Both the position numbers and the translations under genes were made by a program. Positions 11,359 through 41,995 of a stretch of 64,000 nt of DNA are shown piece by piece. Numbering within the stretch: the first letter of the stretch is position 1; each line of letters begins with the position of its first letter. The stretch covers positions 869 through 64,868 of the forward strand of contig CAUQBS010000004.1 of NCBI GenBank assembly GCA_963516485.1, in the 5' to 3' direction. The notes under the pieces are model-generated. The model did no database searches. It was not told where the DNA came from and saw only the letters and a list, made by a program, of their open reading frames with translations. Origin of the DNA: an uncultured bacterium. GTDB lineage: Bacteria > Patescibacteriota > Gracilibacteria > Absconditabacterales > Absconditicoccaceae.

Positions 11359-11381
11359 GATAGACACAATAATAAAAAAAG

Positions 11382-11472: not shown

Positions 11473-12045
11473 TTATAGTCAGAATTTTTTTGGATTTTTG
11501 AGCTTAAATTCCCTTGGTGAGAGGAATCTCTCAATAATTGCATCGAGGACCTTATCTACATTCTCTCCTGTTTTCCCAGATACACAGATCACTTCGTCTT
11601 TTGAGAGTCCAATCATATTTTCAATTTCTCCAGCAACTCTATCTGGATTCGCAGCGGGGAGATCAATCTTGTTCAAGACTGGGATAATATCTAGCCCCTG
11701 ATCAATTGCTTGATACAGTGTTGAAAGCGTTTGAGCCTGAATTCCCTGAGAGGCATCAACCAACAAAATCGCCCCTTCAACCGCAGCTAGTGAACGAGAC
11801 ACTTCGTACTGAAAATCAACGTGTCCCGGAGTATCAATAAGATTAAGTTCGTAGCCCTTCCATTGCATTCTAGCTGGCGTAAGCTTGATCGTAATTCCTC
11901 TTTCCTGTTCTATATCCATACGATCCAAAACCTGAGAATGATTGAGTTTTCTCACAGTCCCAGTGATTTCAAGCATTCTATCTGCTAGTGTAGATTTCCC
12001 ATGATCAATATGCGCGATAATACAAAAATTCCTAATCTTGTCCAT
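11473..12045 (-). CDS. lepA: elongation factor 4 (LepA), N-terminal GTPase domain only (190 aa)
   Basis: [44 protein letters not shown] Shine-Dalgarno sits upstream. The protein ends ...[21 protein letters not shown](TGA)-L-TAA, exactly at the G-domain/domain II boundary. Confidence 0.9.
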
Positions 12046-12190
12046 CTTTTCCCTCAGGTGCAAAAAAATTAAAAATCTGATTTTCCTTCCCTTTTTGTCT
12101 CTATAATCTATCGTTTTCCTAGATAAAAACAAGTGTTTTTACTCCACGCAAAAGAGACCTGAGACTTTCTCTTCTTCGTTAAAATTAATC

Positions 12191-12916
12191 TTATGCTTCG
12201 CTTTTGTCCTCCATTTCCTCAAAAAGCTCCTGTATCAGCTTGATCGCCTCTTTCTGATCTAAAAAGAACGGAGAAGTGGCAATAGTTACCATTTTTGCTC
12301 AAGAGATCAGCTTTCTTGTCTGCTCAAAGGTTCACTCTTTATCTTCAATTCCCATCATCTTCTCCCAAAAATCCATATCAATATCCAAAATATAGTCCTC
12401 ATCAGGTTTATGATAGTGGAGGAGTCAGTATTCGCTCCTGAGTTGGTCTATAGATCCGAGTAATCCACTTCCTAATGCTGGAACAATAAAGTTCCCAACA
12501 TTACACTTCTCTTGGACAAATCAAAAGATTAAATCCAGATTTTTTTCATCTATTTTTCCCTCGTTAGGTTTCATATCCGAGTGCTGATCTATATGAATGA
12601 GCTTTACCCCTTTCGAAAAGCGATTTTGAAAATATTCCTTATACCAGAAATATAAAGCATGATTGTGATTGTCAAAAATATAGATCGGCACTCCTCAAAC
12701 CTCGAAGGTCAAAAATTCCTTTAATCCATAAAAATACTCTAAAGTCCCATTTGTTCATTTTTCACAAAAAACTGGCTCTTCTCAGAGTTCTAGCTCAGAG
12801 ATTCCCTTTTTTACAAGTGGTGCAATCCAAAGTTTTACAGGTTTTCACTCTTCTTGTGATCAAAAAAAACAGTTCCCGTTTACTCATTCAAGCCAAAAAC
12901 CTTTATAATTCTCCAT
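12191..12916 (-). CDS. hypothetical protein, UPF0489-like
   Basis: 241 aa with about 10 in-frame TGA, so invisible in the ORF track. Motif VPIYIFDNHNHALYFWY ... IHIDQHSDM recalls the UPF0489 family. Confidence 0.45.
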
Positions 12917-13115
12917 CTCTCGATCAAAAATAAAAAAAATCAGATTTTTTATCTTATTGGTTCTACTTAACTTAATCCCTATTTCAACCTCTTTTCGATT
13001 TCTTTCCCTCAATCACAAAAAATTAGGACACTCAGTAGCTGAAAGCAGAGATTTTTTCTCTTTATATTGCTAAGCAAAAAACTATACTAAAAAACAGTTT
13101 AGTTTTGCGAAACGA

Positions 13116-14687
13116 ATGTCCGGACATAAACTCGTGATAAAAGATGCTCTCTGGCAGCTAGCCGGGAGAGTGATCAGCGCATTATTTTGATTTGTAATCA
13201 CCAAAATTATTGCCTCATATCTTTGACCGTTAAGATACGGAGATTATGGGACAATTTTCAGATTTTTCGCTTGGTGGACTGCACTGGTAGACTTCTGAAT
13301 CTATGTCCTTGCAATCAAGCAGCTCTGAACTCTAAAAAAACAAATACACTGAGATAAAGAAATAGAAGCTGACTTAAATCCAGCTTCTCCTTTGGCACAA
13401 GACTACTGAAAATTTGTTGGAACGAGAGTTTTCCTCATAGGAATTGTCTATAGTTTGGCAATCGCTATTGCCTACTTGATACCTGCCTATACAGAAAATC
13501 CCTATATCATCCGAGGACTTCCTCTGGCAATGTGCTATTCTGCAAGTAATATGTATGCAGGTATTCAGCAGATACCGCTCCAACTCTTTCGAAAGATGAA
13601 AAGACTGACATGGTCTTTGATTATTGCAAGACTTTCGCAGCTGCTAGTGCTTTTGCCGGTAGTGTATCTGTTCTTTACTAATGTTGACTTCCAGTCTGCT
13701 CAAACACCAAACCTTGTGCTGATTTCAGCTTTTTGTCTAGTGATCTTCTCGGTAGTTGCGAGTTCCCTTGGACAAAATGTGGAAATGCATCTCAGAACCA
13801 AAGATATTCTCCCTCTCAAGATCAGATTTGACTTCTCTTTTATCAAAAAGATTTTAAGTCAGAATTGGAGATTTGGTTTCTCTTACTTTTTTAGTAGCTT
13901 TCATACCTTATTGGTATTGATTTTCCTAGGATGGTTTTTCCCAACAGCTCAAAACTTTGATCATGCGGGGAAGCGAGCTCTGGCTTTGTCTTTGATAGAG
14001 ATTTTACTAATCATCCCATCCTCATTAGGAAATTCACTTCTTCACAAGATCCCAAACTACAGCAAAACACAAAAACAAAAATCCCTCTGAAATCTGATGA
14101 CAATGGTTGTCCGAATTGGAGCCTTGATTGCACTTAACTTCTGGATTTTCGCAGATGATATTATTCTGCTTGTCTCCTCAAGTAAATTCCTTTGAAACCG
14201 AACCAATACTATTGACCGATGAGCCAATCAAGTACTTCCTTTCTTGGGGATTGTACTTGTGCTCAGCTTCATCAAGCAGGTCTATAACTATATCTTCGTA
14301 GCTATGGAGCAACAAAATAGACTTTTCTTGATCAATCTTATCGGAGTAGTACTCGGTGCACTTGTTGGGATCTACCTTATCCCAAGATATGGACTTCTTG
14401 GATGAGTATTAACGCAGCTTTTGATTGAGTGACTTTTCACTGGAGGAGCAATCCGAGTTGCTGCCAGAAATCATCTTACCCCCCACTTTGATACAAAAAA
14501 AGTTATAATTCTGATTTCTTTATTGGTTGGAGTTGGACTCCTCGGTGCTGGACTCCATTATCAAACAGGAGGAACCTCGCTTTGACTCTGGAAGTTTTTC
14601 CTCATCGCTGCGCTAATAAATATCCCGGTTCTACTCCTAGCTATCAAGCCAATGAAAACCGTTGCAAAAGGACTTACACAAGAATAA
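13116..14687 (+). CDS. multi-pass membrane protein, MOP-superfamily flippase-like (Wzx/MurJ type)
   Basis: 523 aa, about 12-14 hydrophobic segments. N-terminus KDALWQLAGRVISALFGFV is typical of polysaccharide/lipid II flippases. Many in-frame TGA. Confidence 0.55.
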
Positions 14688-14710
14688 TTTTTTTATCTCT
14701 CTAAGGGAGT

Positions 14711-15580
14711 ATGTTTAGACAAATTCTATCAGATTCAGTCACTGTCCTCTTTCAAAATCCTAAACTCATTAGGCTCTCTTTTTTGACGCTTGTGTTTTAT
14801 TCAATAGTTCGTATCTACTTTATCGTTTATTATTTCAATACTTTCCTTCTCTATAAATATGAAAGCTGAGTTCAGCTCTCTGATGCCTTTATCTATGTTC
14901 TTGATAAGCTCAATAACCAGTGAATTCTCCGAGCAGTGATCTGAGTTATTATCGTACTGATCTGATATCTTCGGTTCCATCCGATAGGAGAGGCATCAGT
15001 TGTTTCAGCGTTGGATAATCCTCAGCAGTCAGCCTTCAGATCTTTTGTCAGAGGAAGTGGAAAGTTCTTTCCAATGCTGGAGTATAGCTGACTTTCAATT
15101 CCTTTCTGAGTATTTACCTTCTGTACGGTAATGCTGAGGCTCTATCTGATGGATATTTTTGATAATATATTTATTACAATTATCGTGGGAATCCGATGAT
15201 TCCTCGTGCTCTTTGCCAGTGTTTGTTGGTCGTATGCTAGGATTATTATTGCTCTAGAGGGCTGTCAGGTTTTTGATGCGATCAAAAAGAGTACAAGTCT
15301 CGCGATGAATAATCTCGGTCTCTCAGTTAAACTAATGTTTGTTGAGCTCCTCTTGATGCTCAGATTTATTGTTATTGGTCTTCTTATCGTTGGAATCCCG
15401 GTACTTTTGATCTATATTGCAGTGTGGTTGGATGTAATCCAAAATTCCTTTGTAGAGACCACGATCCGAGTAGTTGCAGCAAGTTTGCTTCTAGTAATCG
15501 CATATCTCAACTGTATTGTTGAAGCATTCTTCCTCACCTATTGGTATCAAGCTTATAGAAAAATCTCACCAAAAACATAG
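14711..15580 (+). CDS. hypothetical multi-pass membrane protein
   Basis: 289 aa in one frame shared with track ORF 15206-15580. Several TM segments. Confidence 0.5.
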
Positions 15581-15622
15581 AAAAACCTGAAATCAGACTT
15601 TTTATCTTTCTGTCTCTTTCTG

Positions 15623-15931
15623 ATGGACAGACAAGCCATCTATGAATATTTAACGAAAATACCTTACGGCAAGGTCACAACCTACAAGCATATCGCTCAA
15701 AAATTCTGAATTCATCCAAGGGTAGTCGGAATGATTATGAAAACCAATGATCATCCTGATAAATATCCCTGCTGCAAGGTAGTCTGAGCAGATGGAAAGT
15801 TGACAGGCTATGCTCTCGGACTTGAGGAAAAGATCCGTAGGCTTGCTACTGAGGGAATCCCAGTTCAAAATAATAGAGTTCCTCTTGAATATCTTTGGAC
15901 TTGAGTAGAGGAAAAGAAGATCAGATTTTAA
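15623..15931 (+). CDS. MGMT-family DNA-binding domain protein (methylated-DNA-protein-cysteine methyltransferase C-terminal domain-like)
   Basis: [16 protein letters not shown][TGA][13 protein letters not shown]...YPCCKVV[TGA]ADGKLTGY matches the YGxVxTY...PCHRV pattern, with PCCK in place of PCHR. Confidence 0.6.
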
Positions 15932-15948
15932 ACTTTGTGATATGCAGT

Positions 15949-18618
15949 ATGAACCTAGAGAATCTTACTCCAGCGATGAAACAATATCTTCAGATGAAAC
16001 AACAGAATCCTGATTGTATTCTGCTTTTTAGAATTGGTGATTTCTATGAAGTGTTTTTTGAGGATGCAAAGATTTGTGCTAGCGTGCTTGACCTCATCAT
16101 CACTTCAAAAAATAAAAACTCAGAAAATCCTATTCCTATGGCGGGTATCCCTCATCATAGTATAGAAAAATACATTCCGAGGCTGATTGCAAAGGGCTAT
16201 AAAGTCGCAATTGCTGAGCAGATGACAGATCCTGTTCCTTGAAAGATTGTTGAGAGAAGTATCAAATCAATTATTACGCCAGGAACGTATATTCAAGAAA
16301 ATCAGCGTGAACTCAGTACTCTCTTAGCTATTACAAGGTCTTCTGAGAAGAGTGGAACAAACTATCATCTTGCATGGTGAGATTTTACGATCGGAAACTA
16401 TCAAACCAAAACACTTTCAAACTTAGAACAGGCTCAAAAGCTGATTCTATCATTGCGTCCGACAGAGATTATTCTCGACTCAGACCTAACCAACAAAGAG
16501 GAAATCATCGGTCCCATTCAGAGTTATTTGAACTGTCTAGTCTCTGTATATGGAGTTCCCTTTGATCCTGAGCATACGATTTTGACCGTTTGCAAGGTAC
16601 AGCAGTTAGCTAGCTTTGGAAAGGCATTGACAGAATGAAGAGCTTCCGCTTTAGCTCTGCTTTTTGCCTATATTCAGCATACACAGCAGCAAGTCCTCAA
16701 AAATGTTAATACGATCAGCTACCATGCTGCTGATGGACTCGTTCTGATGGATGAAACTACAGTCAAAAACCTAGAAATATTCAGTTCAAGTTATGAAAAT
16801 TCTAGTAAATATACCTTATTTGAAATTCTTAATACTACGAAAACTGCGTGAGGAGCTAGACTTTTGAGGGATATTCTCTCAAATCCAACAAACAATAAAA
16901 CTGAGCTCAACTGGAGACTTTCTCATCTTGAGAGACTCTTTGATGATACAAAAACCAGTGCCATTCATCAGTTTTTTTCTGCTTTTTTTGATATCCCAAA
17001 GCTTTTAAGCCTTATCCTCTATAGAAAACTCAATTATATCCCGTTTATAAAGTTGAGAACCACACTTTGACTTGCATTAGAGGGACTAGATGGAGAAATA
17101 CTAACTCAGCTGAAGACTATCGGACTTGAGCAATCAGAAGTAGAGGAGTTAAGAGAGATTTACAACTATTTGCTTGCGTTACTCAAGGCTGATGATCAGC
17201 TTATCGGTGATAGTGACTATATTGCTGACTGAAGAGATCCACAAATTGATGAACTCAGAAAGCTTGCTTATCATAGTGATGATCTGCTCCTGAGTTATCA
17301 GCAAAAGCTCGTTGCAAGCTCTGGAATCACCAACATTAAACTCAAGTTTATCACTAATCAGTGATATTTCTTAGAGTTGACGAGCAAAGATAGTGAGCTT
17401 TTTGATCAGTGGATTAGCGAAAAACTCAGCTCAAGTCTCTCAGAACAGGAAAAGAATGAATTCTGAATTCTCCGCAGGCAGACCTTAAAGTGAAATCAGA
17501 GATATTCTAGTCCGCTCCTAGAAAATCTCCAGTGAGAGATTATCTCATCAAGGGAACAGCTTAGAGCTAAGGAACAAGCTCTCCTCCAAGAGGCAAAGTC
17601 TTTCCTTGAAAAAAAAGTTCATGTTCTTGCTGTTGTTGCTGAGAAAATTGCTTGGGTTGATCTGTTGACGTCTTATGCGTTACTTGCAAAGGAGCAACAC
17701 TATACTAGGCCACAGCTTTTAGACCAAGAGATAATTGCTATCCAATGAGGTCGTCATCCAGTGATTGAGGCTTTTCTTCCAAAAGATCAGCCTTTTATTC
17801 CTAATGACCTCAAGATCGGAAAACAGCCAAACCTTCCAAGTGATGATGGTATAATCCATATCATTACCTGACCAAATATGGGAGGAAAATCAACCTATCT
17901 CAGGCAGTCCGCTTTGATTGTACTTTTAGCGCATTGTGGACTCTTTGTCCCTGCTCAAAAGGCTGAAATCTGACTTGTTGATGGAATTTTTGCTAGAGTT
18001 GGAAGCTGAGATATTATCGCTAAAAACCAATCTACTTTTATGACTGAGATGATCGAGGTTGCGAATATTCTCAATAATGCAACAAAAAAAAGTTTTATTA
18101 TCTTTGATGAACTTGGTCGTGGAACCTCTACGTATGATGGACTAGCACTTACCAAGGCAATTTTGCACTATATTCTCCAGACACTACAAGCGAAAACACT
18201 TATTGCTACGCATTATCACGAATTGATTGCTCTAGAGCAGGAATCTCCACTCATCAAAAATTTCTCAGTTAGTGTGTATGAGACAGACAAACAGGTGATT
18301 TTTATGAAAAAAATTACTCATGGCTGAGCAAATAAAAGCTATGGAATCGATGTTGCAAAATTGGCAGGTATCCCTTCCTCAATTTTGGCTGAGGCGCGTG
18401 AGAATTTAGCTGCCCTCGAAAAGGATCAAAAAGATCAAGAAAATCAGACTTCTTCTTTTGCTTCTTCAGTACAGGGATTATTCTCGCTTCCTAAGGAGAA
18501 ATTTCTTGATAAAGCTCAATACGAAAAAATAAAATCAATGCTCAACGGCATTGATCTTAATAATATTACTCCGCTTCAGGCACTCCAGCTCCTCGTGAAA
18601 ATTAAAGAGGAACTCTAG
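15949..18618 (+). CDS. mutS: DNA mismatch repair protein MutS
   Basis: 889 aa after read-through. Motifs [28 protein letters not shown][TGA][12 protein letters not shown] (Walker A), [27 protein letters not shown]. Confidence 0.95.
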
Positions 18619-18619
18619 T

Positions 18620-19546
18620 TTATTGTCCGGCATACATGCGGTCAATACTTGAAGATTTATTCGCAAGATAATCGCTTGCAGTTTTTCAAAAACTAAAGCT
18701 TTTCCCATTTTTCTCATCAAGATAGGTAATTATTCCTTTTGACTTATCATACACGATCGGCTTTTGAGCAAAGGCATGATCAATAATAATAGGTTCCTCA
18801 GATGCATTGATTGCTCAGATAGAGAGTGATTTATTTGGTGTCTTATCTAAAATATCTTTGATCTGTTCGTAGGTTTCCATGTCTAATATCCCGTGTACAT
18901 CAGGATGTGGGGTATTATTCGGAGTTGAAAGCACGTGATCATCATATTTAAATTGACCGGTTTTCGCATCTTTTGACATGAACTTTCCAGCTATCGCTTT
19001 GGCAGCTAGAGAAGGAAGTCAGATATTGAATTTCTTATCAGTCGTTTTCATAAAGTCTGAAATTATTGCGAGATTGTTCTTATCATTACGTGAGGTAATT
19101 GAGGGGAAAACAAGCATTGGACCCTGGGATGGATCTCCAGACTCTTTTGCTATTCCTTGTAGAAGAGTAATAATGTCCTCTGGTCTCATATCATGAAAAT
19201 GAAGCTCTGTTCAGTCCTTTTTCATCTTATTATAAATCTTTGGGAGATTGATAGAGAGATCGGTTTGATTGATATTTTCTCCCCAACGCTCACTTGCGCT
19301 ATTTCCCAGTCCATAGCACTCCTTCAGAATGTCTTTGGGATTTGTCCCATTTCTCAATTTCTCAACAACGACACTATTTCTACGGCTAGGATCATTGTAG
19401 GGGTGTTCTTTAGCAAGATTGAGATTCTTTTTTGAAGTATCTGCTCCTTTCTCTACATTTACCTGTTTTACGTTGCTTTCTTTCCCTTTAGCGAGAGGTT
19501 TAATCTCTTTTATTTCATCTCTGTTTCCCATATTTTCCATACTCAT
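18620..19546 (-). CDS. hypothetical protein (308 aa)
   Basis: Track ORF 19211-19546 continues through 4 in-frame TGA to a TAA at 18620-18622. No family recognised. Confidence 0.5.
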
Positions 19547-19679
19547 ATTGCTAGAATATAAAGATTATATTCAAGTATACCCTTTTCTCTAAAAAAGTCA
19601 AAAAAGCCAGATTTTTCTATAAGTTTAAAAAAAGCTTCTTCCTGTAAATCAGGGAAAAGCTTTTTAATTAGACGTAGGT

Positions 19680-20015
19680 CTAGATAATAGTTTCTGCCTC
19701 GTAATTGAGAATCTTGTCCTTAAGTTTTAATTCTCTAAGGATCTCTCGAGAGTGATTCGTAGCCTCTTCCAAGGCCTCATATGCTCTTTGTAGTTCTGTC
19801 AATTCTTTACCAACAACACCTTTATCATTTATCGCTTCTAGATACCTTTTTCGAAGTTCTTTTGCTTTATCAAAAGAGCTTTTAAATTCCTTATCTAAGC
19901 GCGCGAGCTGTTCTCTCAAGAAAAGAAAATATCTTTCTCGATAGGTTTCATCAGAAACTTTCTGATAGTTAGGGGATCTTTCCATGACATTTATTTTTTT
20001 TATATTAGACACCAA
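19680..20015 (-). CDS. small coiled-coil hypothetical protein
   Basis: Intact ORF with Lys/Glu/Leu-rich heptad-like sequence. The real start may be the internal ATG at 19985 (MERSPNYQK). Confidence 0.45.
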   Translation of the reverse strand: MVSNIKKINVMERSPNYQKVSDETYRERYFLFLREQLARLDKEFKSSFDKAKELRKRYLEAINDKGVVGKELTELQRAYEALEEATNHSREILRELKLKDKILNYEAETII

Positions 20016-20066
20016 CTATACATATAATATATACAAAAGTCAATACTTTTTTGAAAAAAATACAAT

Positions 20067-20105
20067 AAAAAAAACTGACTCCATTGAGCTGAAGTCAGAT
20101 TTTTA
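20067..20105 (-). terminator. intrinsic terminator after the 20118-20531 gene
   Basis: Minus sense: TCTGACT-loop-AGTCAG followed by a T run. Confidence 0.5.
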
Positions 20106-20117
20106 TTATTTGTAGTC

Positions 20118-20531
20118 TTAAAGAGCAGAAGTCCTAGGAGTGAGATCGTTATAGTACAAATCTCCATTATACTGATTCTGAACCTGAGAATCTTTAATAA
20201 AATTTCCAAGTTTTCAAAGATGTCCAAGGATTTTTCCCATATAAGTAAAAATCTGTCTCGGAGTATAGTTTTCTGCTCCCTGGAGGTGCATAAATTTCAA
20301 TAGTGATGGAGAAACAAAGATCAACATTACTGTCAAAAACATACCCAAAATCATGTATCTAATGCTATCCCAAGCAGCTTTGATCTGCTTTTCATCTCCT
20401 TTTGAAAAGATAAAAAAGAAGATTGCTCTAAAAAACGCATAAATACATCCTCAACAAATGACCAAAACAAGTCCTCCTAATCCATAGAGCACTACTTCCT
20501 GAAATCCTCAAACATTATCTAATCCGATCAT
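20118..20531 (-). CDS. small two-TM membrane protein (possibly TrbC/VirB2-like pilin family)
   Basis: 137 aa with 4 in-frame TGA. Two hydrophobic helices flank the loop FSKGDEKQIKAAWDSIRYMILG, a layout seen in CPR T4SS-pilin-like proteins. The function is a weak guess. Confidence 0.35.
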
Positions 20532-20599
20532 TGATCATCAAATCAAAAATTAAAGGTAAAGAAAAAACCCTCAAGGGATTTTTCAGTACTATAGCAGAA

Positions 20600-20896
20600 T
20601 TACTTGTCTGCATTCTTTGGAAGGCTCTTTCTTTCTCTCATTTCAAAGAATTTTTGGAAAAGAGCATCATTTGTTTCTTTATAAAGAAGTTTTGCAACTC
20701 TTTCAGACATCTGAGATCCTTTAGCTACCCAAGCCTTGATAGTTTCAACATCAGCCTGAAGGATATGATGAAGAGGATCATAAGAACCCAAAACTTCCTT
20801 GTATCCAAACTTTGCTGGCTTAGTATGTTCAGTCAATACGATTCTATAAAAAGGTCTTTTGGTTCTACCGTGTCTAGATAATCTAATAGTCAACAT
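20600..20896 (-). CDS. rpsP: 30S ribosomal protein S16
   Basis: MLTIRLSRHGRTKRPFYRIVL is the S16 signature. No TGA codon. Confidence 0.95.
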   Translation of the reverse strand: MLTIRLSRHGRTKRPFYRIVLTEHTKPAKFGYKEVLGSYDPLHHILQADVETIKAWVAKGSQMSERVAKLLYKETNDALFQKFFEMRERKSLPKNADK

Positions 20897-20936
20897 TCTA
20901 GAATGTACAATAAAAATCTAAAAAAAATCTGAATTC

Positions 20937-21113
20937 TTACTTAAGTTTTTCCTTTGAAGTGTGTTCAGTATGCTTTCTACAGTGCTTGCAGTATTTGTTT
21001 TGAGCAAGCTTTGGAGTAACAGCCTTGTTGATATTTGTAAAATAATTTGTAGCTTTACATTCACTACATACCATTGCAACCTTTACAACTCCTCCTTTCT
21101 TTTTTGCGGCCAT
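20937..21113 (-). CDS. rpmG: 50S ribosomal protein L33
   Basis: MAAKKKGGVVKVAMVCSECKATNYFTNINKAVTPKLAQNKYCKHCRKHTEHTSKEKLK has the CxxC...CxxC L33 pattern. At 58 aa it is below the track cutoff. Confidence 0.85.
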   Translation of the reverse strand: MAAKKKGGVVKVAMVCSECKATNYFTNINKAVTPKLAQNKYCKHCRKHTEHTSKEKLK

Positions 21114-21172
21114 AATACCTTAAAACAAACAAAATAAAATATGAATGACTTTTGAGATGATCTTTAGATAAT

Positions 21173-21246
21173 TGGCACTAGGTAGACTCGAACCACCGAC
21201 CTCGCCCTTATGAGAGGCGCGCTCTAACCTGCTGAGCTATAGTGCC
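21173..21246 (-). tRNA. tRNA with CAU anticodon (elongator Met, or Ile2 if lysidine-modified)
   Basis: Hand-folded cloverleaf: acceptor GGCACTA/TAGTGCC, anticodon loop CTCATAA, T-loop GGTTCGAGTC. The G1-C72 pair argues against an initiator. No encoded CCA. Confidence 0.85.
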
Positions 21247-21276
21247 ATAACAGTCCATCAATTTCTCAAATGAGGT

Positions 21277-21363: not shown

Positions 21364-21465
21364 CACCTCACCAAAATTACAATAGTCATTGTATAGTGAA
21401 TTGGGTTTGAATTTCAAGGCAAAAACAATAAATTAAACTCTGAATTTTTATCTTTTTTCACCAGA

Positions 21466-22059: not shown

Positions 22060-22088
22060 AGTATTTTACTCTACCAAAATGATTGCAA

Positions 22089-32500: not shown

Positions 32501-32586
32501 TTATCCCAATCTAGTCTAAACCTCGTCTTAAGCCCTCTATATGATAGAAAGCGAAGTTCAAACTCATATTTATTCATAGTAGGCAT
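29515..32586 (-). CDS. dnaE: DNA polymerase III alpha subunit lacking the N-terminal PHP domain; acidic low-complexity C-terminal insert
   Basis: 1023 aa. Motifs MGFNSYFLIVSDYV, VGPGRGSGAGSLLA, LLFERFLNPARISMPDFDIDF, FQFESQGMRKF, ALYRPGPM, GEADMLRR, SYSFNKSHSVCYA. The first residues align to about residue 285 of E. coli DnaE, and no HxH/PHP motifs are present. Confidence 0.9.
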
Positions 32587-32671
32587 TGCAGATAGTCTTG
32601 ATTGAGAATAAAGTCAAATAGTCAGTTTTGAGTGTAGTGTTTTCTTCTCCAAAATCAATTTGAAAACAACC

Positions 32672-32702
32672 AAAAAACTGACTCCTAATATAGAAGTCAG
32701 CT
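32672..32702 (-). terminator. intrinsic terminator between the lipoprotein gene and dnaE
   Basis: Minus sense: CTGACT-loop-AGTCAG followed by TTTTTT. Confidence 0.5.
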
Positions 32703-32722
32703 TTCTCTGCCAAGTATTACGA

Positions 32723-33109
32723 CTAAAACGTCATTCTCCTCCATTTCCCATTGATACGAACTTCTCCATGGAGATAGCGAACGCTTGCTCGTTGATATTC
32801 TCCAACTTGCAAGGGGACAGTATATATGCCCTCTAGCTTCCTATCTTCATTTGCCCAGATAAAATCTGACTCTTTAAGATTTAAGGTATAGGTTTTATCT
32901 CGGGTAGATATGGTCCACTCACTTTCAAATCTTACGAGCTCAATGAGCTCAGATGAGTGAGCGAATGTGATCATCAATGAGGATTGCTTTGTGATTTGGC
33001 TCGTGAAGATCCCAGTTTTCCAAGAAATAGGTTCTTGATAGCTATCTTCACTCTTTGAACATGCAAATAAAAGCATGCTCAAAACTACGAATACTACGAT
33101 TTTTTTCAT
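32723..33109 (-). CDS. small lipoprotein, hypothetical
   Basis: MKKIVVFVVLSMLLFACS is a lipobox. Intact ORF. Confidence 0.6.
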   Translation of the reverse strand: MKKIVVFVVLSMLLFACSKSEDSYQEPISWKTGIFTSQITKQSSLMITFAHSSELIELVRFESEWTISTRDKTYTLNLKESDFIWANEDRKLEGIYTVPLQVGEYQRASVRYLHGEVRINGKWRRMTF

Positions 33110-33299
33110 TTTCTAAATGTTTTTTTATGTTTGATACTCTCACTATAATGATTCCCTCCCTAAAATCAATTCAAAATATTGACAAAATAAATAAATATAA
33201 AAAAATATATAAAAAACTTGTAAAAAATAAAGAAGATGATTAATAAAAATATAGTTTAAAACTAGTATTTTAATGATTCTCAAAAATCTTTTCAAAAAA

Positions 33300-33327
33300 T
33301 TGACATTTTTAAAAAAAGATATATAAT
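33300..33327 (+). promoter_or_regulatory. sigma70-like promoter (TTGACA-16-TATAAT)
   Basis: TTGACA at 33300-33305 and TATAAT at 33322-33327, in a roughly 430-nt AT-rich spacer. It would give a leader of about 210 nt for the SLH-protein gene. Confidence 0.5.
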
Positions 33328-33541
33328 ATTGTTGTCGCAAGAATGATAGTAATCTTGTGATAGGAAAAATCCACTTCCTTTGGAGAATAAAGTTTTAGAT
33401 AGTACCTTTGAAATAAGCCATAAAAATCAGATTTTTTCTGATGAGTTTTTCAGAGTGTGAACAGTATTCTTCACAAATTGTCTTTGTAAACGAATAAAAA
33501 GGTTCTACACACAAGCCGTTTTATTCATAAAAAAAGACAAG

Positions 33542-34972
33542 ATGAAACAACCTTCAAGAACTCATTTTGGAGGGATGTGGAAAGTTTTAGCAGTGATTGT
33601 GATCTTTTGATACACTGTTTCTAGTGTGCTTGCCTCAAATATTACAAGTATCAAGAATACAGAATCAAACGCAATTACTCCAGCTTCTAGCCTCCAAAAG
33701 GAAATTGAGACTGATGTTGCCTTGAGTGCTAAAAAGGTATGGAACAACTTGGTAAATTTTATGCAAGATGGTATGGATGGTGCTTCAACTGGGACCGAAA
33801 AATCTCAGAAAGAAAAACCTGATTCAGCTTCTGATATAAAATATCCAATCGTTCGTAGCGTTTTACCTCAGACAGAATCAGCGCTCTTGCCTGCTTTTTG
33901 AGATATCAGTACTGATCCTCATAAAGCAAGTATTGAAGCTCTCGCTAGTATTTGAGTTATTCAATGATGAGCAAGTGGAAAATATTATCCACATAACTTT
34001 GTTCGTACCAGTGACTTTATCAGAGTTGTACTAGATATTTATAGATACAAACTTGGATATTCACTAGAATCAACTAACGGTCTTTCTGATCAGAGTTTTT
34101 TCAAGCAAGGTTATGGAAATGCACTTCTTCTCAAAAAACTCAATACCGCAAAAGCTTTATGATTTCTTGATCATCTAGGGACAATTGAGCTTGATGCTCT
34201 AATTACTCCTGTTCAAGCGATGCAGATCCTTAACACTATTTTAGATCTCAATCCATATATCGGTCAAAAAGAGAAGGTAAATCTGATTTCTTCTTCTGAT
34301 ACTCAGTTTACTAAATCACAGATGGCCTGATATTTGGCAGATATTTTCCAGTTGGAAAAAAGTATCATATCACCGGTATTTAATGATATTAGTAATCATA
34401 GATATCATGCGGCAATTACCAAATTAGCACAGCTCGGGGTAGTAGCTGGTAAGAATGGTAATTTCTATCCAGATAATGATGTCCTTCGTGCGGACTGAAT
34501 AGTTATGCTCGCCAATAGTTTACTGGCTCAGCAGTGAAAAGCACTTGTTATTACTAATTTTACTCATTTACCAAAAATCAATGATACAACCTATTTTGCA
34601 GCCTTTGCTCCCCATTTGGAATATTTGCTTACAAATGAGATATGAGATTTTCTACTTCGTAATGAACAGTCAGGATATCTGTTTTTACCTCATGCTCAGC
34701 TTACTAAGTGAGAGGCTTATCAGCTTGTTTCCCAAGCTACTAGAGCTAAGTTGCTCAACATGGATCAGTGAGAGACCTCCAAACCGATCACGAGAGGAGA
34801 GCTAGCGGATCTAATCGTTCAGGCTTTTGATTTTGCTCCTAAAGAGTCTACAACTTCAGCCTATCAACCTACTTCTGAACCTCAAAGTGCTAATACTAAA
34901 AACCAAGCACTCAGAGAGGAGAAGAAATGATTTCTCGCTACTTTACTCAAAGATATGATGGATACACTCTAG
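33542..34972 (+). CDS. secreted protein with S-layer-homology (SLH)-like repeats
   Basis: Signal anchor MWKVLAVIVIF. Three repeats of the pattern F.DI..H...A I..L...GV..G......P....R.. (for example FNDISNHRYHAAITKLAQLGVVAGKNGNFYPDNDVLRAD). About 16 in-frame TGA. Confidence 0.55.
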
Positions 34973-35082
34973 TTGATACCAGTACTTGGAAAAAATAAAC
35001 AAGGTTAAACCTCACAAAAAAATCAGACTTTTTTGATCTTTTGCTTAGTATTTAAGCATTTTATACTTAATCATATAATACC

Positions 35083-35373
35083 ATGAAAAAAACAGACACA
35101 ATTAGATATAATAGTTATGAAAAGGATATTGTTCAAGGACTTGAACCAAATGAAGCTTTATACCTTCAGAAGCAGTCTGCGAGAATGAGAAAAAATACGC
35201 AGCAAGCAGATATTTTGAGATCTCAGGAAGCTGAAATCAATGAATATATTTCTCATACTTCAAATGCGCTTTCTAGCACATTGAATCTTAGCGATAGCTT
35301 CTCTTCTCAGATGAGAAATCAGGTTTTGAACACCAAACATGACTTGCATCATCTCTTTTCTCTTGAACATTAA
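35083..35373 (+). CDS. small hypothetical protein
   Basis: Intact 96-aa ORF followed by a strong terminator. Confidence 0.45.
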   Translation: MKKTDTIRYNSYEKDIVQGLEPNEALYLQKQSARMRKNTQQADILRSQEAEINEYISHTSNALSSTLNLSDSFSSQMRNQVLNTKHDLHHLFSLEH

Positions 35374-35398
35374 AAGTTCTAGATGACAAGCGAGAAAT

Positions 35399-35424
35399 CT
35401 CCACATTTTTGTGGAGGTTTTTTT
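35399..35424 (+). terminator. intrinsic terminator
   Basis: CTCCAC-ATTTTT-GTGGAG followed by a T run. Confidence 0.7.
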
Positions 35425-35767
35425 GTTATCAAAAGGTGAAAAATCTGATGAGAAATCGCTGTTAGTATATGAGTAATCCTTTGGTTTTGAACGAAACAAA
35501 GCCTCCTTATACCATCTCTCCAATCTCACAAAAAAGGTGAAAATAGAGGTTAAGATTAGTTTTTCTAGTTGTTGTTCTTGGAGTGGGTTTTTGAGGTGAA
35601 TTCCCTTTCTTCTTAGAATAAAACACAAGTCAGTCAAATTTTCTTTAGAATTTGAGCAATGAGTGCTAGGGAGGCTTAAATAGTTCGGAATTTCTTCTTG
35701 ATAATAGAAACAATATCGGTAGATTTACCATGATCAATAAGTATGTCGTAAGTCTACCGTCACATAG

Positions 35768-36763
35768 ATGACTATAGGTAGATACTTGGCGGTGGAGCCT
35801 ATAGTTTTTTATGTTTTTGGGGGAAATATGTGCCAGACTGTGCCGGGGCTAAAAAATGATATAAAGCAAAGATTGCTTATATATCGGCAGTATGTTCTAC
35901 TAAATAATAAGGAGGGGAAAACAGATATCAATAGAGATACTCAGGATTTTTTTGTTGAATTAGGAAACGAATTATTTTGATTTAATCTAAAAAATGCAGA
36001 CTATAAAAATAAGAATCAAGACTCTTTTGACCTAGAGAACTGTGATAAACTGTTTGTTGTTCAGGTTACCTCTACAACTACTGCAGCTAAAATCAAGTCT
36101 GGACTAGAAATATTTAGGGATAAATATAAAGCTGAATTTTCCCGTTTTAAAATGCGGTTTATATGACGTAGAGGGAAAAATAGAAGAGATTTTAGTGAAC
36201 ATAGTGAGTACTTTGACACAAGAACAGATATTATTGACATAGATACTGTATCAAATGAAATTAATAAAATTCTTGATGAGGGCAGACTTTTTAAAATATT
36301 AAATATTATTGAAAGATATCAAAGCCTCTCTAGATTGGATTATCAGAAGATTAAGAATATTCTAAAATATATAAAAAAATATTTACAAAATAAGAATGTT
36401 TATAAAGAATTATATCAATTACAAATAGACAAAGAAAGAACGAAAAGGTTTGATTATATGGAGGAAAAGAATAAACTTAATAAAGTTGATAAGGTCATTT
36501 ATCAAGAGTCTATTATATTTAATCAAAGTATAGAAATGCTATTAAAAATGGATGATAATACAAGAGCTTTATATAATTCAATAGCTAAATCAATAAATAA
36601 GCTTTTACATGCTTGAGACAATGTTTTAGTTGATACCATCAAAGAAATTGTTGATAGCATGCCACTTGATGAAAGGATAGATAGGCATTATGAAACGCTT
36701 ATGATAGTTCTATGTAATATGTATTTTAATTGTGATATCGGGGAAAATCCAAAATGCTTCTAG
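35768..36763 (+). CDS. SMEK-like domain protein, first gene of an ABC-3C-like three-gene operon
   Basis: 331 aa; the start may instead be the ATG at 35828. The motif DINRDTQDFFVELGNELF[TGA]FNLKNADYKNKNQDSFDLENCDKLFVVQVTSTTTAAKIKSGLEIF matches my memory of the SMEK domain pattern (DIN..AE.F...LLN...G..L.N.N....IDL....IAIQVTS....KI). Helical C-terminal region. Three in-frame TGA. Confidence 0.55.
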
Positions 36764-37029
36764 TTGATAAACATGAAAATATAGATACTTCATTACTTGT
36801 GCTTAGTATGAGGATTTTTAATGAGATAAGAAAGCAGAGGTATATTTCTTATAGTAAGTTATTAGCTAAAATGAGATTTATAGAAAAAAATAAAAAGATT
36901 AAAAAGCAACATATTAGTGTAGAAAAATTTATTTGAGCCTTGATGTTTCTATATGCTTGCAAAAAAATTATTTATCATAAAGATATAGACATTTTTACAT
37001 TAAATCATTGTTTAAATGAAACTCAGTAG
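36754..37029 (+). CDS. small helical protein, candidate ABC-3C middle component
   Basis: 91 aa. Overlaps the upstream gene by 10 nt and the downstream gene by 14 nt. One in-frame TGA. Size, position and the ...KFI[TGA]ALMFLYACKKIIY motif resemble MC proteins. Confidence 0.45.
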
Positions 37030-38781
37030 ACTATATACAAATAATTCTGATTTTCAAACAATAGACTTTAATCCATGATTTAATGTTATTTTTTGAGATC
37101 ATGAAAAAAAAGATAAGCCATGAGAAAATGGAGTAGGGAAAACAAAGCTTTTACAACTGATAGATTTTATGCTCTGATGATCTCATTCCAGTTTCAATAA
37201 ACAAATAAAAACGAATTTGGATTGATGGGTCTTTTTTTTGGAGCTCGAAGTTAAGCAAGACCATTATATAACTATTTCTAGATTTCGAAATAGTGCCAAG
37301 ATCTCTATAAAAAAACATAGTATCAATAAACAAGATTACAGCGATATTTTGGATGTAGAGCAAGAATGGAATGTGTGGAAATGTGCAGAAAAACAAGGCG
37401 TAGAGATAATAAATTCATACTTAAATTTTAGTACATCATTCCCCTATAGGACTCTTATACATTATCTATTAAGAGAACAAGATGACTATGTAAGTCCTTT
37501 TACTACATCAAAATATATGAAGCATAGAGATTGGAAACCTTATTTGTATGAATTACTTTGATTTAATGGTATAATATTAAAGAGAAAATATTTATTGGAG
37601 GATGAACAGGAACAACTAAAAAAACAAATTGAAAATTTAAGAAAAGATGTTTCAGAATCTATTAATGAAATTTATGTTCAAAAGACAGAATTAGAGCAAC
37701 GTGTCCAAAAATTAAGGCAGTCTTCAGATATCTCCCCCTTTAAATCACAGGATTTTGATGATACTACTATTAGAGAGCTTGTTCAATGAATAGAAAGCGA
37801 AATTTATCGTCTTAATCGTGATCAGTATAGAATATCTACAGAACTTGAATTGATTAATGAATCTTTAGAAGAGACAACAATAACAGAATTTCAAGAAAGA
37901 CAATTTAAGGATTTTTTTTGCCAATTAGAGGGCGTACTTTCTGAAGAGGGAGACAACCTGAAACAAAGACTGATTGATGTGAAAAAGTTCCAAGAGACTC
38001 TTACTTTAGAGAGAAATAAATATCTGGAGGAAAGAAAGGTATTATTAGAATCAGATTTAGATGCAATAGCTAAAAAATATAAATCATTGGATGGTAAAAA
38101 AGAACAGTATTTACGTAGACTTCAAGAATCAGATTTGTTTAAAAAATACCAATCACAACAAAGAGAAATCGCTGAAAATCTAGAGAGGATAAATCAATTA
38201 GAAAGACAATTAGCGATCCATCACTTAATAGAAGAATATTCGAAAAAAGAAATAAAATTGACGAAGAAATTAAAGAGCTTATTTCCGAAATAAAGTTGCA
38301 AAATTCTTATACAAATTATCCGGAGTTATTCACTAAAATTAGTAACTTACTAAAAGATACTTATTCCAAAGTATATGATCAAACAGAAAAAGCCTTGATT
38401 TACCTCAATACTAATCATTCTTGAAATCCTGATTTTGAAAATAAAATAACAGATCAAAAAGATAATCCTTTGGCAACTGATGATGGATATACTGCCAAAA
38501 GAATCCTATGTGCCTTATTTATACTATCCATAATGGCTATTTATTCTGAAGAAGGTTTTAATTTTTTTAAGTTTGCGTATTATGATTGAGTTTTAGAATC
38601 TGCCTGAGAAGGAGTGAAAAGGAATTTTATCCGCGAGACTAAGGAACTCTGTAGTAAGTATAATATCCAATATCTTATTAGCGTCATAAGAACCGATTTG
38701 CCAACAGACAAAAGTATTACAAATCAAGATATTATAATTACTCTGAGTAAAAATAAAAAGTTATTTTGAAAAAATTTTTAA
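37016..38781 (+). CDS. coiled-coil ABC/SMC-like ATPase (DUF2326 / ABC-3C ATPase-like), interrupted by a 1-nt frameshift at 38243-38249
   Basis: N-terminus MKLSRLYTNNSDFQTIDFNP[TGA]FNVIF[TGA]DHEKKDKP[TGA]ENGVGKTKLLQLIDFML (Walker A), then about 250 aa of coiled coil. The frame switches from mod-3=2 to mod-3=1 at TCGAAAAAAG. C-terminus ...ILCALFILSIMAI...FNFFKFAYYD[TGA]VLESA (Walker B-like)...QYLISVIRTDLP. Confidence 0.6.
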
Positions 38782-38799
38782 CCGCTATGTTTTCAAAAA

Positions 38800-39155
38800 A
38801 TGTCTGAATCTACTAAAAAATGCCCATTTTGTGAGTCTGAGGTGTCTGAAACAGCGGTAAAATGTAAATATTGTTGAGAGTTTATAGATGGTACAAAAAA
38901 ACAGATAAACTTATTTATAGAGACGCATTCCAAATATCAGATCCAAAAATTTTTTGTCCTCAGTGCTGATATGAGGGGAAAAACTCGAAAATAGAAAGAA
39001 AAGGAAGCTCTTCAGTGTGATGCCTTTTATTTTTGTTCTTTTTTATACCAGGAATGATTTATAATGCACGAAGAGGGAGACCATATTTTGTATGTCCAGA
39101 ATGTGGTTATAAGCATATTAAGAAGTTAGAAAAAAATAATGATAACAGAAATTAA
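38800..39155 (+). CDS. double zinc-ribbon small membrane protein, interrupted by a 1-nt frameshift in A7 run 38895-38901
   Basis: Frame A gives MSESTKKCPFCESEVSETAVKCKYC[TGA]EFIDGTKK. Frame B gives ...IFCPQC[TGA]YEGKNSKIERKGSSSVGCLLFLFFFIPGMIYNARRGRPYFVCPECGYKH. Together these make three CxxC...CxxC knuckle pairs around one TM segment. Confidence 0.45.
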
Positions 39156-39185
39156 AATCTGACCATACTATGGTCAGATTTTTTT
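39154..39185 (+). terminator. intrinsic terminator closing the island operon
   Basis: AAAATCTGACCA-TACTA-TGGTCAGATTTT followed by a T run (12-bp stem). Confidence 0.8.
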
Positions 39186-39227
39186 ATTTTCTGAAAAAAG
39201 AAATCATGAGCGATACAGATTACAAAC

Positions 39228-39401
39228 CTAAAGTCAGACTGGAGGTTGAAAATGCCATAGATAGGAATAAAGTCTAATAAGAGCTAGAGGCAATCCTATA
39301 AGAGCAAAAGTAGTAGGATTAAAGTAAAACCAGTATCCTAAGAATACTAGAGAACAAATAAGTCCTAAAATTTTTGATACTAAGAAAATTGTCTTCAGCA
39401 T
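39228..39401 (-). CDS. possible small two-TM protein
   Basis: MLKTIFLVSKILGLICSLVFLGYWFYFNPTTFALIGLPLALIRLYSYLW... 57 aa with one in-frame TGA. Confidence 0.3.
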
Positions 39402-39469
39402 TTTTGCTTATTGCTATAAATTAAAGAAGACCAATACCGACCTATATTTATATAAAGTTTTTCCTAATT

Positions 39470-39765
39470 CTTTGCTCGAACTACTGCGAGAGAGAAATAT
39501 AGGAAAGCGGGTGAGTTAAATTCTTGGGTAAGAATAAAAAACAACCTACAGTATATAATCCCCGACCTTGGCTAGAATGCCTTAGCTGTGGCTGGGTAGA
39601 CCAAAGCGGGGATTTTATAGTGTAAGTTATTTATAGCTAATTATTCTAGTTTCACTACCCCGTGTATTGGCTAGTTAATTGATGTTTCAATAGGCACGGC
39701 CAATACTCAGTAGGACATACAGAAAAAGCCTATTATCATCACGGATAATAAGCTCTACAAGTGGT
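39470..39765 (+). ncRNA. rnpB: candidate RNase P RNA (reduced bacterial type)
   Basis: AGGAAAGCGGGTGAG (39501-39515) resembles the P4 5' consensus GAGGAAAGUCCGGGC. ACAGAAAAAGCCTAT (39719-39733) resembles ACAGAAnnnGGCUUA. CTACTG (39481) pairs with CAGTAG (39708), like P2. Internal helices CCCCG/CGGGG and GTATTGGC/GCCAATAC. The ends are approximate. Confidence 0.5.
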
Positions 39766-39784
39766 AAAAACTAACGTTTCATAA

Positions 39785-39856
39785 TGCCCCAGCCCGGAGT
39801 CGAACCGGGATTCCAGTCTTCGCAGGACTGTGTCCTATCCATTGAACGACTGGAGC
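39785..39856 (-). tRNA. tRNA-Arg (GCG anticodon)
   Basis: Hand-folded: acceptor GCTCCAG/CTGGGGC, anticodon stem CAGTC/GACTG with loop CTGCGAA, T-arm CCCGG-TTCGACT-CCGGG. No encoded CCA. Confidence 0.8.
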
Positions 39857-39992
39857 ATTGCTCCATGCAGTATATGAAACTCTTCTCAAAAAACAAGCTT
39901 TTTCTTGCAATCTGCAATCATTTTCATATAGTATACCAAGCAAATAACCAAAAGAAACTCCTGTTCCTTTTGTTAAAAAAGCCACTTTTACC

Positions 39993-40454
39993 TTGAAAAA
40001 GGATCGCGTGAATACGAAAATAAAAACCGAGCTCGCAAAACACATCAATCTCGCCTCAAAGACTGGAGTATTTTTCTCAGCCTTTGACTCAGCGGGACAA
40101 CTTTTGGCTGCAAATGGGGTGATCAAGACAGATAGAGCAGTGGAGTTGCTCGTAGATAGCTTCTGCACTGGAATTCTTAATAAATACTGAGAAAAAATTA
40201 AAAGGCTGATTTTTGATCTTGTGACTGAAATTAGAATCCAAAACGACCCAAATGAACTCATCAAAGTGCCAATGCATGAGCGAGGAGTATTCCTTGTGCA
40301 GTGAGAGGATCACAAGAGCTGAGTTCTTCTGCCAAATACTAAGTGAATAGATACCATCCAGCAGGCACTCTCCGCTATCAAGCAAAAATATGGCCTCTCA
40401 TCACAGGTCTCTGTCTATCTTTTCAAGACTATTAGAGTTGAAATTCCACTATAG
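39993..40454 (+). CDS. AMMECR1-like domain protein (short)
   Basis: ERGVFLVQ[TGA]EDHKSGVLLPNTK[TGA]IDTIQQALSAIKQKYGL resembles the AMMECR1 C-terminal pattern (hG..i....g..LLP.V..e.....e.l.....KaG). The start codon is uncertain (TTG at 39993). Confidence 0.45.
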
Positions 40455-40481
40455 ATCAACTATTTGACATAAAAAAAATAA

Positions 40482-40510
40482 AAAAACCTGAAGCATGACT
40501 TCAGATTTTT
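40482..40510. terminator. bidirectional terminator between the AMMECR1-like gene and the lepA C-terminal gene
   Basis: CTGAAG-CATGA-CTTCAG flanked by A and T runs. Confidence 0.55.
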
Positions 40511-40540
40511 CTTTATATTTTCTGAGATATTAGATATTAA

Positions 40541-41995
40541 CTATTCTCTCGTAATCATTTTAACAAAAGTTTCAGTAGGTACCTCGACACTTCCGATCGC
40601 CTTCATTCTTTTCTTACCTTCTTTCTGCTTTTGGAGGAGCTTTCTTTTTCTACTTACATCTCCTCAGTAACATTTAGCAAGAACGTCCTTTTTGATAGCA
40701 GAGATCGTCTCACGGGCAATGATTTTATTTCCAAGTCCTGCTTGGAGTGGAATCGCGAACAGATGCTTTGGAATCAGTGTTTTTAATTTTTCTACTGCTT
40801 CACGACCAAGGTAATATGCTTTATCATAATGCACAACCCAAGTTAATGCCTCAACCTTCTCGTTATTGATAAAGATATCGAGTTTCACTAGATTATCAGG
40901 TGTATATCACTTAAATTCATAGTTCATGGTCGCATATCCTTTGGTCGCAGACTTGAGACGATCATAGAAGTCAACGATAATCTCTCCCATTGGCAACTCA
41001 TAATGCCAAACAACTCTGGTTGCATCAATATATTCCATATTTTTGAGTTTTCATCTATATTCCTGAGAGAGCGCCATGATATTTCCCGCATATTCTTCTG
41101 GTCCTACAACCTCAACATTCGCAATCGGTTCCAGAATCATTTCAATCATCCCTTGGTCAATCATATCAGATCCTGATTTTACTACGATCCAAGGATTCAA
41201 AATCTCAGCCAGCTTTTTAAACTTTGGATTTTCAAGCATAGTTCCAAAAATTCATTCTGAATGTTCTAGATGTTCGATCTCGCTTGTGGTCAGTTCAAAC
41301 TTCTCCATTTTCAGGATTTCGCGATAGAGTCCTGTTTGAACGAGTCATTTGATATTCATTCAGGTTTTGATCAGAGGAATTGAGAGGTTTTTAGATTTGA
41401 CAAGATACATTACAGTTGGTATCGTGAAAATGGTATCAAGCCCATACTCACGGAAAAGTCTCTCCTTGATAATATCCATATGGAGCATTCCCAAAAATCC
41501 ACAGCGGAATCCAAGTCCCAAAGCCTTACTATCTTCCATTTCGTAGGCAACGGCACTATCATTGAGTGAGAGTTTTTCTAGACTATCCTTGAGTTTGTCG
41601 TATTCAGTTGAATCAATGGGGTACACTCCAGCATATACATAGGGAGTAACCTTTCTAAAACCAGGAATCAAAAACTGATGATACTCATCTTTTGTCTCGT
41701 TTTTTCAGACCTTTGCTTTGATGATGGTATCTCAGATCTGCACATCTCTCACTGATTTTTGCCCAGTCACAATATATCAGATTTGTCCTTCATTAAGTGA
41801 TTTATCTGGTGTATATTCTGGCGTGAAATATCCCACTTCAGTTGGGAAAAAGCTTTTGTCCGAGTGGATCAAATATACTTCATCTCCGGCAGAAAAAGAG
41901 CCATCTACTACCTTTACATAGGCGAGAACTCATTTATAAGGATCAAATACTGAATCAAAAATCAATGCTCTTGAAACTTCCTGCATACTGCTCAT
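40541..41995 (-). CDS. lepA: elongation factor 4 (LepA), domains II-V plus C-terminal domain only (484 aa)
   Basis: Starts [21 protein letters not shown][TGA]VLAYVKV, the first motif after the G domain. Also [62 protein letters not shown][TGA][21 protein letters not shown]. Has its own GAGG about 15 nt upstream of the ATG. Carries a roughly 60-aa insertion relative to E. coli. Confidence 0.9.

Follow-up and report, generated by a model that had tools for sequence, protein, structure and literature searches.

The window analysed here is a stretch of 64,000 nucleotides from an uncultured bacterium of the Absconditabacterales (contig CAUQBS010000004.1), in which the gene lepA, encoding the translational GTPase EF4, is present as two separate pieces. 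The first piece, lepA-N (11473..12045, minus strand), encodes a stand-alone EF4 G domain of 190 amino acids (aa) when translated with genetic code 25, and ends with the stop codon TAA. Its only Pfam match is GTP_EFTU (E=1.5e-57), and the motifs G1-G5, SGK included, were found to be intact by inspection of the sequence. At its C-terminal end lies the linker motif FKLKNPKKF, followed by the residues GL and the stop; this glycine, residue 189, is encoded by the single in-frame TGA of the piece. The second piece, lepA-C (40541..41995, minus strand), encodes 484 aa from the ATG at 41995 (481 aa from the ATG at 41986), contains 10 in-frame TGA codons and ends with ...KMITRE and a TAG stop. It matches the Pfam families GTP_EFTU_D2, EFG_III (weakly, under the curated cut-off), EFG_C and LepA_C, the latter over residues 376-481 (E=5.9e-45), and thus corresponds to EF4 domains II, III and V plus the LepA-specific C-terminal domain; a Pfam match to EFG_IV was not found on this piece, which is therefore without domain IV. 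The best matches of lepA-N in the PDB are EF4 chains (E=8e-62), and lepA-C matches EF4 structures at 3e-123. EF4 is accordingly not encoded on one polypeptide in this genome segment but by two open reading frames (ORFs), each with its own stop, which are separated by 28,495 bp and lie on the same strand with the C piece transcriptionally upstream. A tblastn search of the window with an intact relative returned these two pieces only, covering query residues 3-187 and 200-654. In addition, the C piece carries an insertion of about 68 aa between domains III and V (41180-41385, residues ~204-271) with respect to all solved EF4 structures, which is also present in intact LepA proteins of the Absconditabacterales.

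The genetic code matters for recognizing lepA-C, since ORF calling under table 11 leaves this gene in fragments, while re-translation with code 25 makes it continuous. When TGA is taken as a sense codon, the long ORFs (100 aa or more) of the window add up to about three times as many residues, rising from 12.7k to 38.4k. Six of the in-frame TGA codons of the C piece fall in regions that can be aligned to Thermus EF4, and all six face a glycine (DPYK-G-V, GQI-G-Y, VQI-G-D, YR-G-K, FK-G-Y and KCY-G-GD). These correspondences indicate that code 25 (UGA=Gly) is in use, as in SR1/Absconditabacteria and Gracilibacteria, and the nearest database proteins to both pieces carry the labels candidate division SR1 or Absconditabacteria. 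A previous examination of this DNA without database searches (hereafter the sequence-only reading) had given the coordinates, strands and sequences of both pieces, and these are correct once TGA is read as glycine.

Break point, independent assemblies and selection

Residues 1-178 of the N piece align with residues 1-183 of E. coli EF4, and the C piece aligns from its residue 9 onward with residue 192 onward, which places the break in the linker between the G domain and domain II (G/II linker), without loss or duplication. Both this alignment and the tblastn result agree with the sequence-only reading, which had described a clean split at this domain boundary. Intact LepA proteins of the Absconditabacterales, of about 656 aa (P0151, P0161 and L006-L009 in our numbering of relatives), have a lineage-specific long linker which reads ...FKKSHPKKF-RPVGQDQAQITG..., while the more distant relatives L010, L011, L014 and L021 keep the usual short linker. 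The 11-residue tail of the N piece and the short leader of the C piece are the two halves of the linker found in the intact relatives, indicating that the cut fell inside the expanded linker. Thus the 11-aa tail and 9-aa leader pointed out in the sequence-only reading do exist, but they are homologous to the linker of intact relatives and do not represent new sequence. Of the 120 protein clusters nearest to the N piece, 87 preserve the motif [FH]KxKNPKKF at their extreme C-terminal end; this conservation indicates that the end of the piece is under selection and is not read-through junk. In the window's clade the stop of the N piece lies just past PKKF, and in the split genes of L001, L112, L013 and L017 it lies at IPxPK.

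Exact or near-exact C pieces were found on three independent assemblies, namely a 532-kb scaffold from ENA, a JGI contig and a second ENA contig. In all three, the upstream neighbours of the C piece are the same (XRE, membrane protein, SecG, SBP_bac_5, Peptidase_M50, DUF488, ADH, RF-1 and Peptidase_U32). The 532-kb scaffold also shares with the window the SLH, 128-aa and DnaE genes downstream of the C piece and the flanks of the N piece, with UPF0489 and Polysacc_synt on one side and thymidine-phosphorylase-like, L1, L11, NusG and SecE genes on the other. On this scaffold (ERZ28634972 scaffold_3) the C piece lies at 376,170-377,624 and the N piece at about 413.3-413.8 kb, and on a 284-kb scaffold (ERZ28634862 scaffold_11) they lie at 238,808-240,253 and 270,280-270,852, respectively, all on the plus strand. 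In both scaffolds C is upstream of N on one strand, with a gap of 30-36 kb and the same flanking genes, and their strains differ from that of the window by a synonymous divergence (dS) of about 0.25. The split is real and not an assembly artefact: both junctions and the order of the pieces, which the sequence-only reading had wished to see secured against mis-assembly, recur in independent long scaffolds.

Both lepA frames are open under code 25, without internal stops. The ratio of nonsynonymous to synonymous substitution (dN/dS), calculated by the Nei-Gojobori method under code 25, was 0.018 for the N piece (dS 0.27) and 0.015 for the C piece (dS 0.24) between the window and a sister strain. 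Pairs across the split clade gave values of 0.04-0.11, and pairs of intact relatives gave 0.04-0.08 for the same regions. The pieces are not decaying, and each is as strongly constrained as intact lepA.

Split lepA in relatives and the surroundings of the pieces

Database searches with the N piece recovered more than 100 clusters of stand-alone G domains of 170-200 aa with 78-99% identity, some of which occur on hundreds of contigs, the longest of 0.92 Mb. The corresponding search with the C piece gave about 50 clusters of stand-alone C pieces of 460-510 aa, followed by intact proteins of ~656 aa. The fission is therefore shared by related code-25 genomes, as the sequence-only reading had proposed to verify. 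Every longer locus that allowed a search for both pieces contained C together with N (the window, L083/84/85, L001, L112, L013, L017 and the two ENA scaffolds). The full tree, computed by neighbour-joining on the C part, places the window inside a clade of 35 leaves, all of them split. In a reduced tree with bootstrapping, computed on 39 sequences (17 read from DNA in this analysis, the other 22 being gene calls of databases), the window's split clade has 100% support. Split genes appear elsewhere in this tree as well: L013/L017 are sister to the intact P0216/P0231 (95%), within another major clade (98-99%), and intact proteins are the partners of split ones in three further cases, P0154 with L001 (89%), L008 with P0165, which is the same as L112 (99%), and P0185 with P0222 (100%). 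We conclude that at least three independent fissions are verified on DNA, in the window's clade, in L013/L017 and in the L001/L112 group, and that there were probably more.

The layouts of lepA in the relatives cover a range of states. The ancestral neighbourhood is sigma70(-), HHH_5(+), lepA(+), DUF1294 and HhH-GPD, which is found around intact lepA in L006, L008, L009 and L010 and around the genes split in situ in L001 and L112. Intact lepA has a short linker in L010, L011 and L014, and an expanded one in L006-L009 and P0151. In P0162 and L111 lepA is continuous and carries a module of ~155 aa matching DUF559 (Pfam E=1e-32), in frame and exactly in the G/II linker. In L001 and L112 the gene is split in situ, N and C being separated by 0.5 kb that contain a small ORF, unrelated and in the opposite orientation. 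In L013 and L017 the segment sigma70-HHH_5-N is inverted with respect to C, which amounts to one inversion with its breakpoint at the junction. Finally, in two independent samples from the window's clade N and C are collinear and 6 kb apart, with SufBD, T2SSE and RuvB genes between them, and in the window's species the order is C, 28-36 kb, N.

The DUF559 module, which has a Vsr/PD-(D/E)XK-like nuclease fold, is also present in P0156, and in L111 the module-bearing gene lies at 3289-5707 and has an additional frameshift in the G domain at ...VSGK. P0156 and P0230 were considered as fission intermediates composed of DUF559 plus a C piece, and were rejected because in L111 DUF559 is in frame with the end of the G domain and what interrupts the gene is a frameshift located more upstream. 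Another module, PDDEXK_3 (PF13366), occurs as an in-frame insertion within a loop that lies at the end of domain II in P0210, P0233 and L017 (6808-7325), L017 being also split. It seems that lepA is a recurrent target of in-frame nuclease-domain insertions in the Absconditabacterales. No Pfam or PHROGs match was obtained for the small ORFs in the in-situ inserts (orf105 of L001 and orf124 of L112), nor for the genes next to the pieces in L083. Two ORFs located between C and the inverted N in L013 (12092-13361) are absent from the otherwise identical L017, and visual inspection suggests an AbiEi/AbiEii-type toxin-antitoxin pair. The intact gene of L008 (9356-11428) has an unusually long linker (...FKKENPQKYRPAGSHSERSEEYNKANDILHKSSGGHDGISRALIFDC) and is the sister of the split gene of L112 (3893-6437) with the 99% support given above; this pair could allow the end-points of a fission to be defined, or could represent a re-fusion.

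The surroundings of the pieces change rapidly. L086 and L087 encode an identical N protein (P0011), and its flanks are inverted and exchanged between them (DnaE..S16 and PS_pyruv_trans..RNase HII), with a breakpoint right beside the N piece, which indicates that rearrangement is very frequent in these genomes. In the window's clade both pieces have lost all their ancestral neighbours, and the gene order around them is no longer conserved at 86-90% identity of the C piece; the actual path of rearrangement to the permuted order was not recovered by synteny tracing.

The interval between the pieces in the window (12046..40540) contains genes for UPF0489, Polysacc_synt, MGMT-like, MutS, S16, tRNA-Met, tRNA-Ser, ComM/Mg-chelatase-like, NDK, FtsE-like ABC, YkuD, DnaE and SLH proteins or RNAs. 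It is core chromosome plus one defence island and not a mobile element; no integrase or transposase was found with Pfam among the interval genes searched. The island has a low GC content (35100-39860, GC 0.28-0.30 against about 0.36), adjoins a tRNA-Arg gene (39784-39857, minus) and codes for an ABC-3C-type defence system composed of an SMEK_N effector, an MC6 middle component and an AAA_23 ATPase, the ORF of the latter (37016-38293) being apparently frameshifted and going on in another frame to 38781. At the same tRNA-Arg site the cargo differs among sister strains: L090 has a HATPase_c_4 gene set, L091 a prophage-like block containing YopX, and L092 SNase together with ThsB-TIR, so that the site looks like a hypervariable integration hotspot. 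An ORF of about 150 aa without Pfam match (39993-40455, plus) is convergent with lepA-C, and a minus-strand ORF (39755-40357) that overlaps tRNA-Arg is probably spurious; public pipelines differ in the strand called in this region. Besides three tRNAs, the Rfam scan of the window detected no RNA, and in particular no intron-like RNA.

Each piece is surrounded by its own putative expression signals. A terminator-like bidirectional hairpin with a T-run (11381..11406, or 11386-11401 in a tighter delimitation) lies directly downstream of lepA-N and also 3' of the convergent thymidine-phosphorylase-like gene, and a terminator-like hairpin with a T-run (40480..40512, minus) directly follows lepA-C. 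A third terminator-like hairpin (42095..42127, minus) belongs to the XRE-family gene (42150-42353, minus) and stands between this gene and lepA-C, which therefore probably needs its own promoter within 41996-42094, a region that alignment showed to be nearly identical among sister strains. In the intergenic region upstream of lepA-N (12046..12190, minus), the sequence GAGGG occurs 5 nt ahead of the ATG, and the strains and a 96%-identical relative share a conserved block, CACTTGTTTTTATCTAGGAAAACGATAGATTATAGAG (alignment of the window, L093, L104 and L086), which could be a candidate promoter. The sequence-only reading had assigned to each piece its own Shine-Dalgarno (SD) sequence, start and stop; each piece does have a start and a stop of its own, and the N piece a well-placed SD-like sequence, but the SD-like sequence of the C piece is poorly placed and the stop of this piece is TAG.

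A probable two-chain EF4 and competing explanations

According to these data, we consider it probable that lepA underwent an ancient and genuine fission in the G/II linker, producing two independent genes and an EF4 made of two chains. The idea of a two-subunit EF4, raised in the sequence-only reading, is strongly backed, given that both pieces are kept and are under purifying selection throughout the clade. In the series of events that we propose, the G/II linker would have lengthened in the Absconditabacterales and become tolerant to insertions. A DNA insertion or a breakpoint in the linker would then have left two genes, N stopping just past PKKF and C beginning a few codons ahead of SRALIFDS, and the ordinary rearrangements of small genomes would later have parted the halves, to 28-36 kb with C upstream of N. 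The N and C chains would associate non-covalently through the normal G/II interface, either free in solution or while on the ribosome; the C chain would provide binding to the ribosome and tRNA (domains II, III, V and the C-terminal domain) and the N chain the ribosome-activated GTPase, and docking may be aided by the KNPKKF tail, which is conserved on the N chain. Such a split EF4 is predicted to have ribosome-dependent GTPase/back-translocation activity. Since the linker tolerates an in-frame domain of 155 aa and fissions have apparently been repeated at one point, tight covalent coupling of the two parts would be dispensable. It is quite plausible, although we would not go further than that, that in a large SR1/Absconditabacteria clade EF4 is an obligate two-chain GTPase whose G domain is a separate, freely diffusing subunit.

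Several points weigh against this interpretation. EF4 is dispensable in model bacteria, and for this reason the constraint on each half may reflect separate new roles. We infer the expression of both pieces from selection, and the association of the N and C chains is likewise presumed. A scan for the sigma-70 consensus gave nothing over the shuffled background upstream of either piece, and the SD-like GAGG of the C piece sits 15 nt ahead of the first ATG, a bad spacing; as this ATG is ATA in one sister strain, the second ATG, at 41986, is probably the start that is conserved. The AlphaFold2 model of an intact relative is of low confidence, with a mean predicted local distance difference test (pLDDT) score of 62, and its linker blocks (58-67) show a mild dip relative to the flanks (79-83). 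A second, intact lepA, which the sequence-only reading had suggested looking for, was not seen, the tblastn search having covered the window. As for the phylogeny, the trees are neighbour-joining only and several of the split states are gene calls alone, one of which (P0230/L111) proved to be a frameshift. Moreover, the evolutionary series is pieced together from different lineages and does not follow one lineage over time.

The main alternative, conceivable though unlikely, is that the two halves are both functional but act apart, as a free small GTPase and as a ribosome- or tRNA-binding factor devoid of GTPase. Purifying selection would fit separate functions equally well, each piece forms a transcription unit with a terminator to itself, and a layout in which the pieces are unlinked and permuted imposes no co-regulation. 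However, both pieces are kept together wherever both could be sought, their dN/dS is like that of intact lepA with no sign of a relaxed or accelerated phase, and the linker halves, including KNPKKF, are still conserved on the separated pieces. The fact that fission seems to recur at the same inter-domain point also fits a preserved assembly better than repeated neofunctionalisation. That the pieces are remnants of a dead lepA or the product of a chimeric assembly is hardly credible, even though lepA is non-essential in model bacteria and the sequence of the window is a metagenome-type assembly: dN/dS values of 0.015-0.018 at dS of about 0.25 and the absence of internal stops under code 25 speak against decay, and hundreds of independent contigs with the same pieces, together with two long scaffolds that repeat the junctions and the order, speak against a chimera. 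Rejoining of the halves after expression, by a split intein or by RNA trans-splicing, is equally far-fetched. "Fractured genes" with unlinked halves joined by split inteins do occur in microbial metagenomes (PMC2677866), but in the window the N piece has only 11 extra residues and the C piece about 8, all homologous to ordinary linker, which leaves no space for intein halves, as had been noted in the sequence-only reading; trans-splicing finds no counterpart in the Rfam results, where intron-like RNA is missing from the window.

The order of the pieces raises a different question, that of the origin of the split. The sequence-only reading had observed that the segment 11473-41995, if circularised, would formally rejoin N and C, and had proposed a block transposition or the excision and reintegration of a circle through a site in an intact lepA; the integration hotspot at tRNA-Arg, which adjoins the C piece, might be cited in its favour. 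We regard such a one-step origin as very improbable, since the interval is core chromosome and neither integrase, transposase nor repeats were noticed at its borders. In addition, one deep branch inside the all-split clade still shows the collinear arrangement of N and C, 6 kb from each other, so that the fission is older than the permuted order. Neither piece keeps the sigma70/HHH_5/DUF1294 neighbourhood, pointing to several moves, and flanks are rearranged even between near-identical strains. Relatives with lepA split in situ, collinear at 6 kb or inverted do not support the proposed transposition either. As to the related remark that the layout cannot result from a simple insertion, it is valid for the arrangement found today, but not for the origin of the split. 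In a history of fission followed by rearrangement, as in the two-chain interpretation that we favour, the rejoining of lepA on circularisation would be incidental.

Known split genes and the meaning of a divided EF4

The two pieces of the window jointly hold the same set of domains as canonical EF4/LepA (E. coli 3CB4/3DEG, Aquifex 2YWE and Thermus 5IMQ). They differ from it in being two unlinked genes, in the expanded linker, in the ~68-aa III/V insertion and in the decoding of UGA as glycine. Gene fission itself is known; what is unexpected here is the class of protein affected. To our knowledge, translational GTPases (EF-Tu, EF-G, IF2, RF3, EF4 and BipA) are always single chains with the G domain fused to domain II. 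We found no published report of a split lepA/EF4 or of a two-chain translational GTPase, within an incomplete coverage of the journals.

The nearest parallels come from other kinds of genes. In Nanoarchaeum equitans, which has a small and rearranged genome, conserved housekeeping proteins are each encoded by a pair of distant genes, the breaks lying at domain boundaries, and presumably assemble into heterodimers. It belongs to another domain of life and the genes concerned are others, and in the case of lepA the splits fall in the same linker in several apparently independent lineages; we know of no translational GTPase among the split genes described in N. equitans. In the Aeromonas phage Aeh1, nrdA, a gene for an essential-type enzyme, is split by the free-standing homing endonuclease mobE, and the products of the two ORFs are thought to reassemble non-covalently (PMC3045599). 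As in Aeh1 nrdA, lepA of the relatives holds nuclease-type modules (DUF559 and PDDEXK_3), DUF559 being exactly at the split site. Unlike Aeh1 nrdA, the pieces of the window are 28 kb apart and permuted, and the DUF559 modules of the relatives are in-frame domains and not separate genes. No endonuclease gene was found between or beside the pieces of the window, whose junction flanks are intergenic stretches of 115 bp and 154 bp with terminators. The split-intein fractured genes (PMC2677866) likewise have their halves at separate loci, but the window pieces are without intein sequences, which makes splicing chemistry impossible.

The division of lepA also has practical consequences. In these genomes the pieces are annotated in databases as "hypothetical protein" or as "GTP-binding protein" fragments, and such annotation can distort estimates of completeness based on marker genes and phylogenies based on LepA.

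Models of GTPase activation by the ribosome give a central place to the communication of the G domain with domain II. A G domain that is naturally separate, maintained by selection and apparently arisen repeatedly offers a ready-made test of whether covalent linkage is needed. If our interpretation is true, the covalent link between the G domain and domain II would be dispensable for ribosome-activated GTP hydrolysis, and separation of the two may even be advantageous, for example by allowing independent dosage of the two chains or a regulated assembly of EF4.

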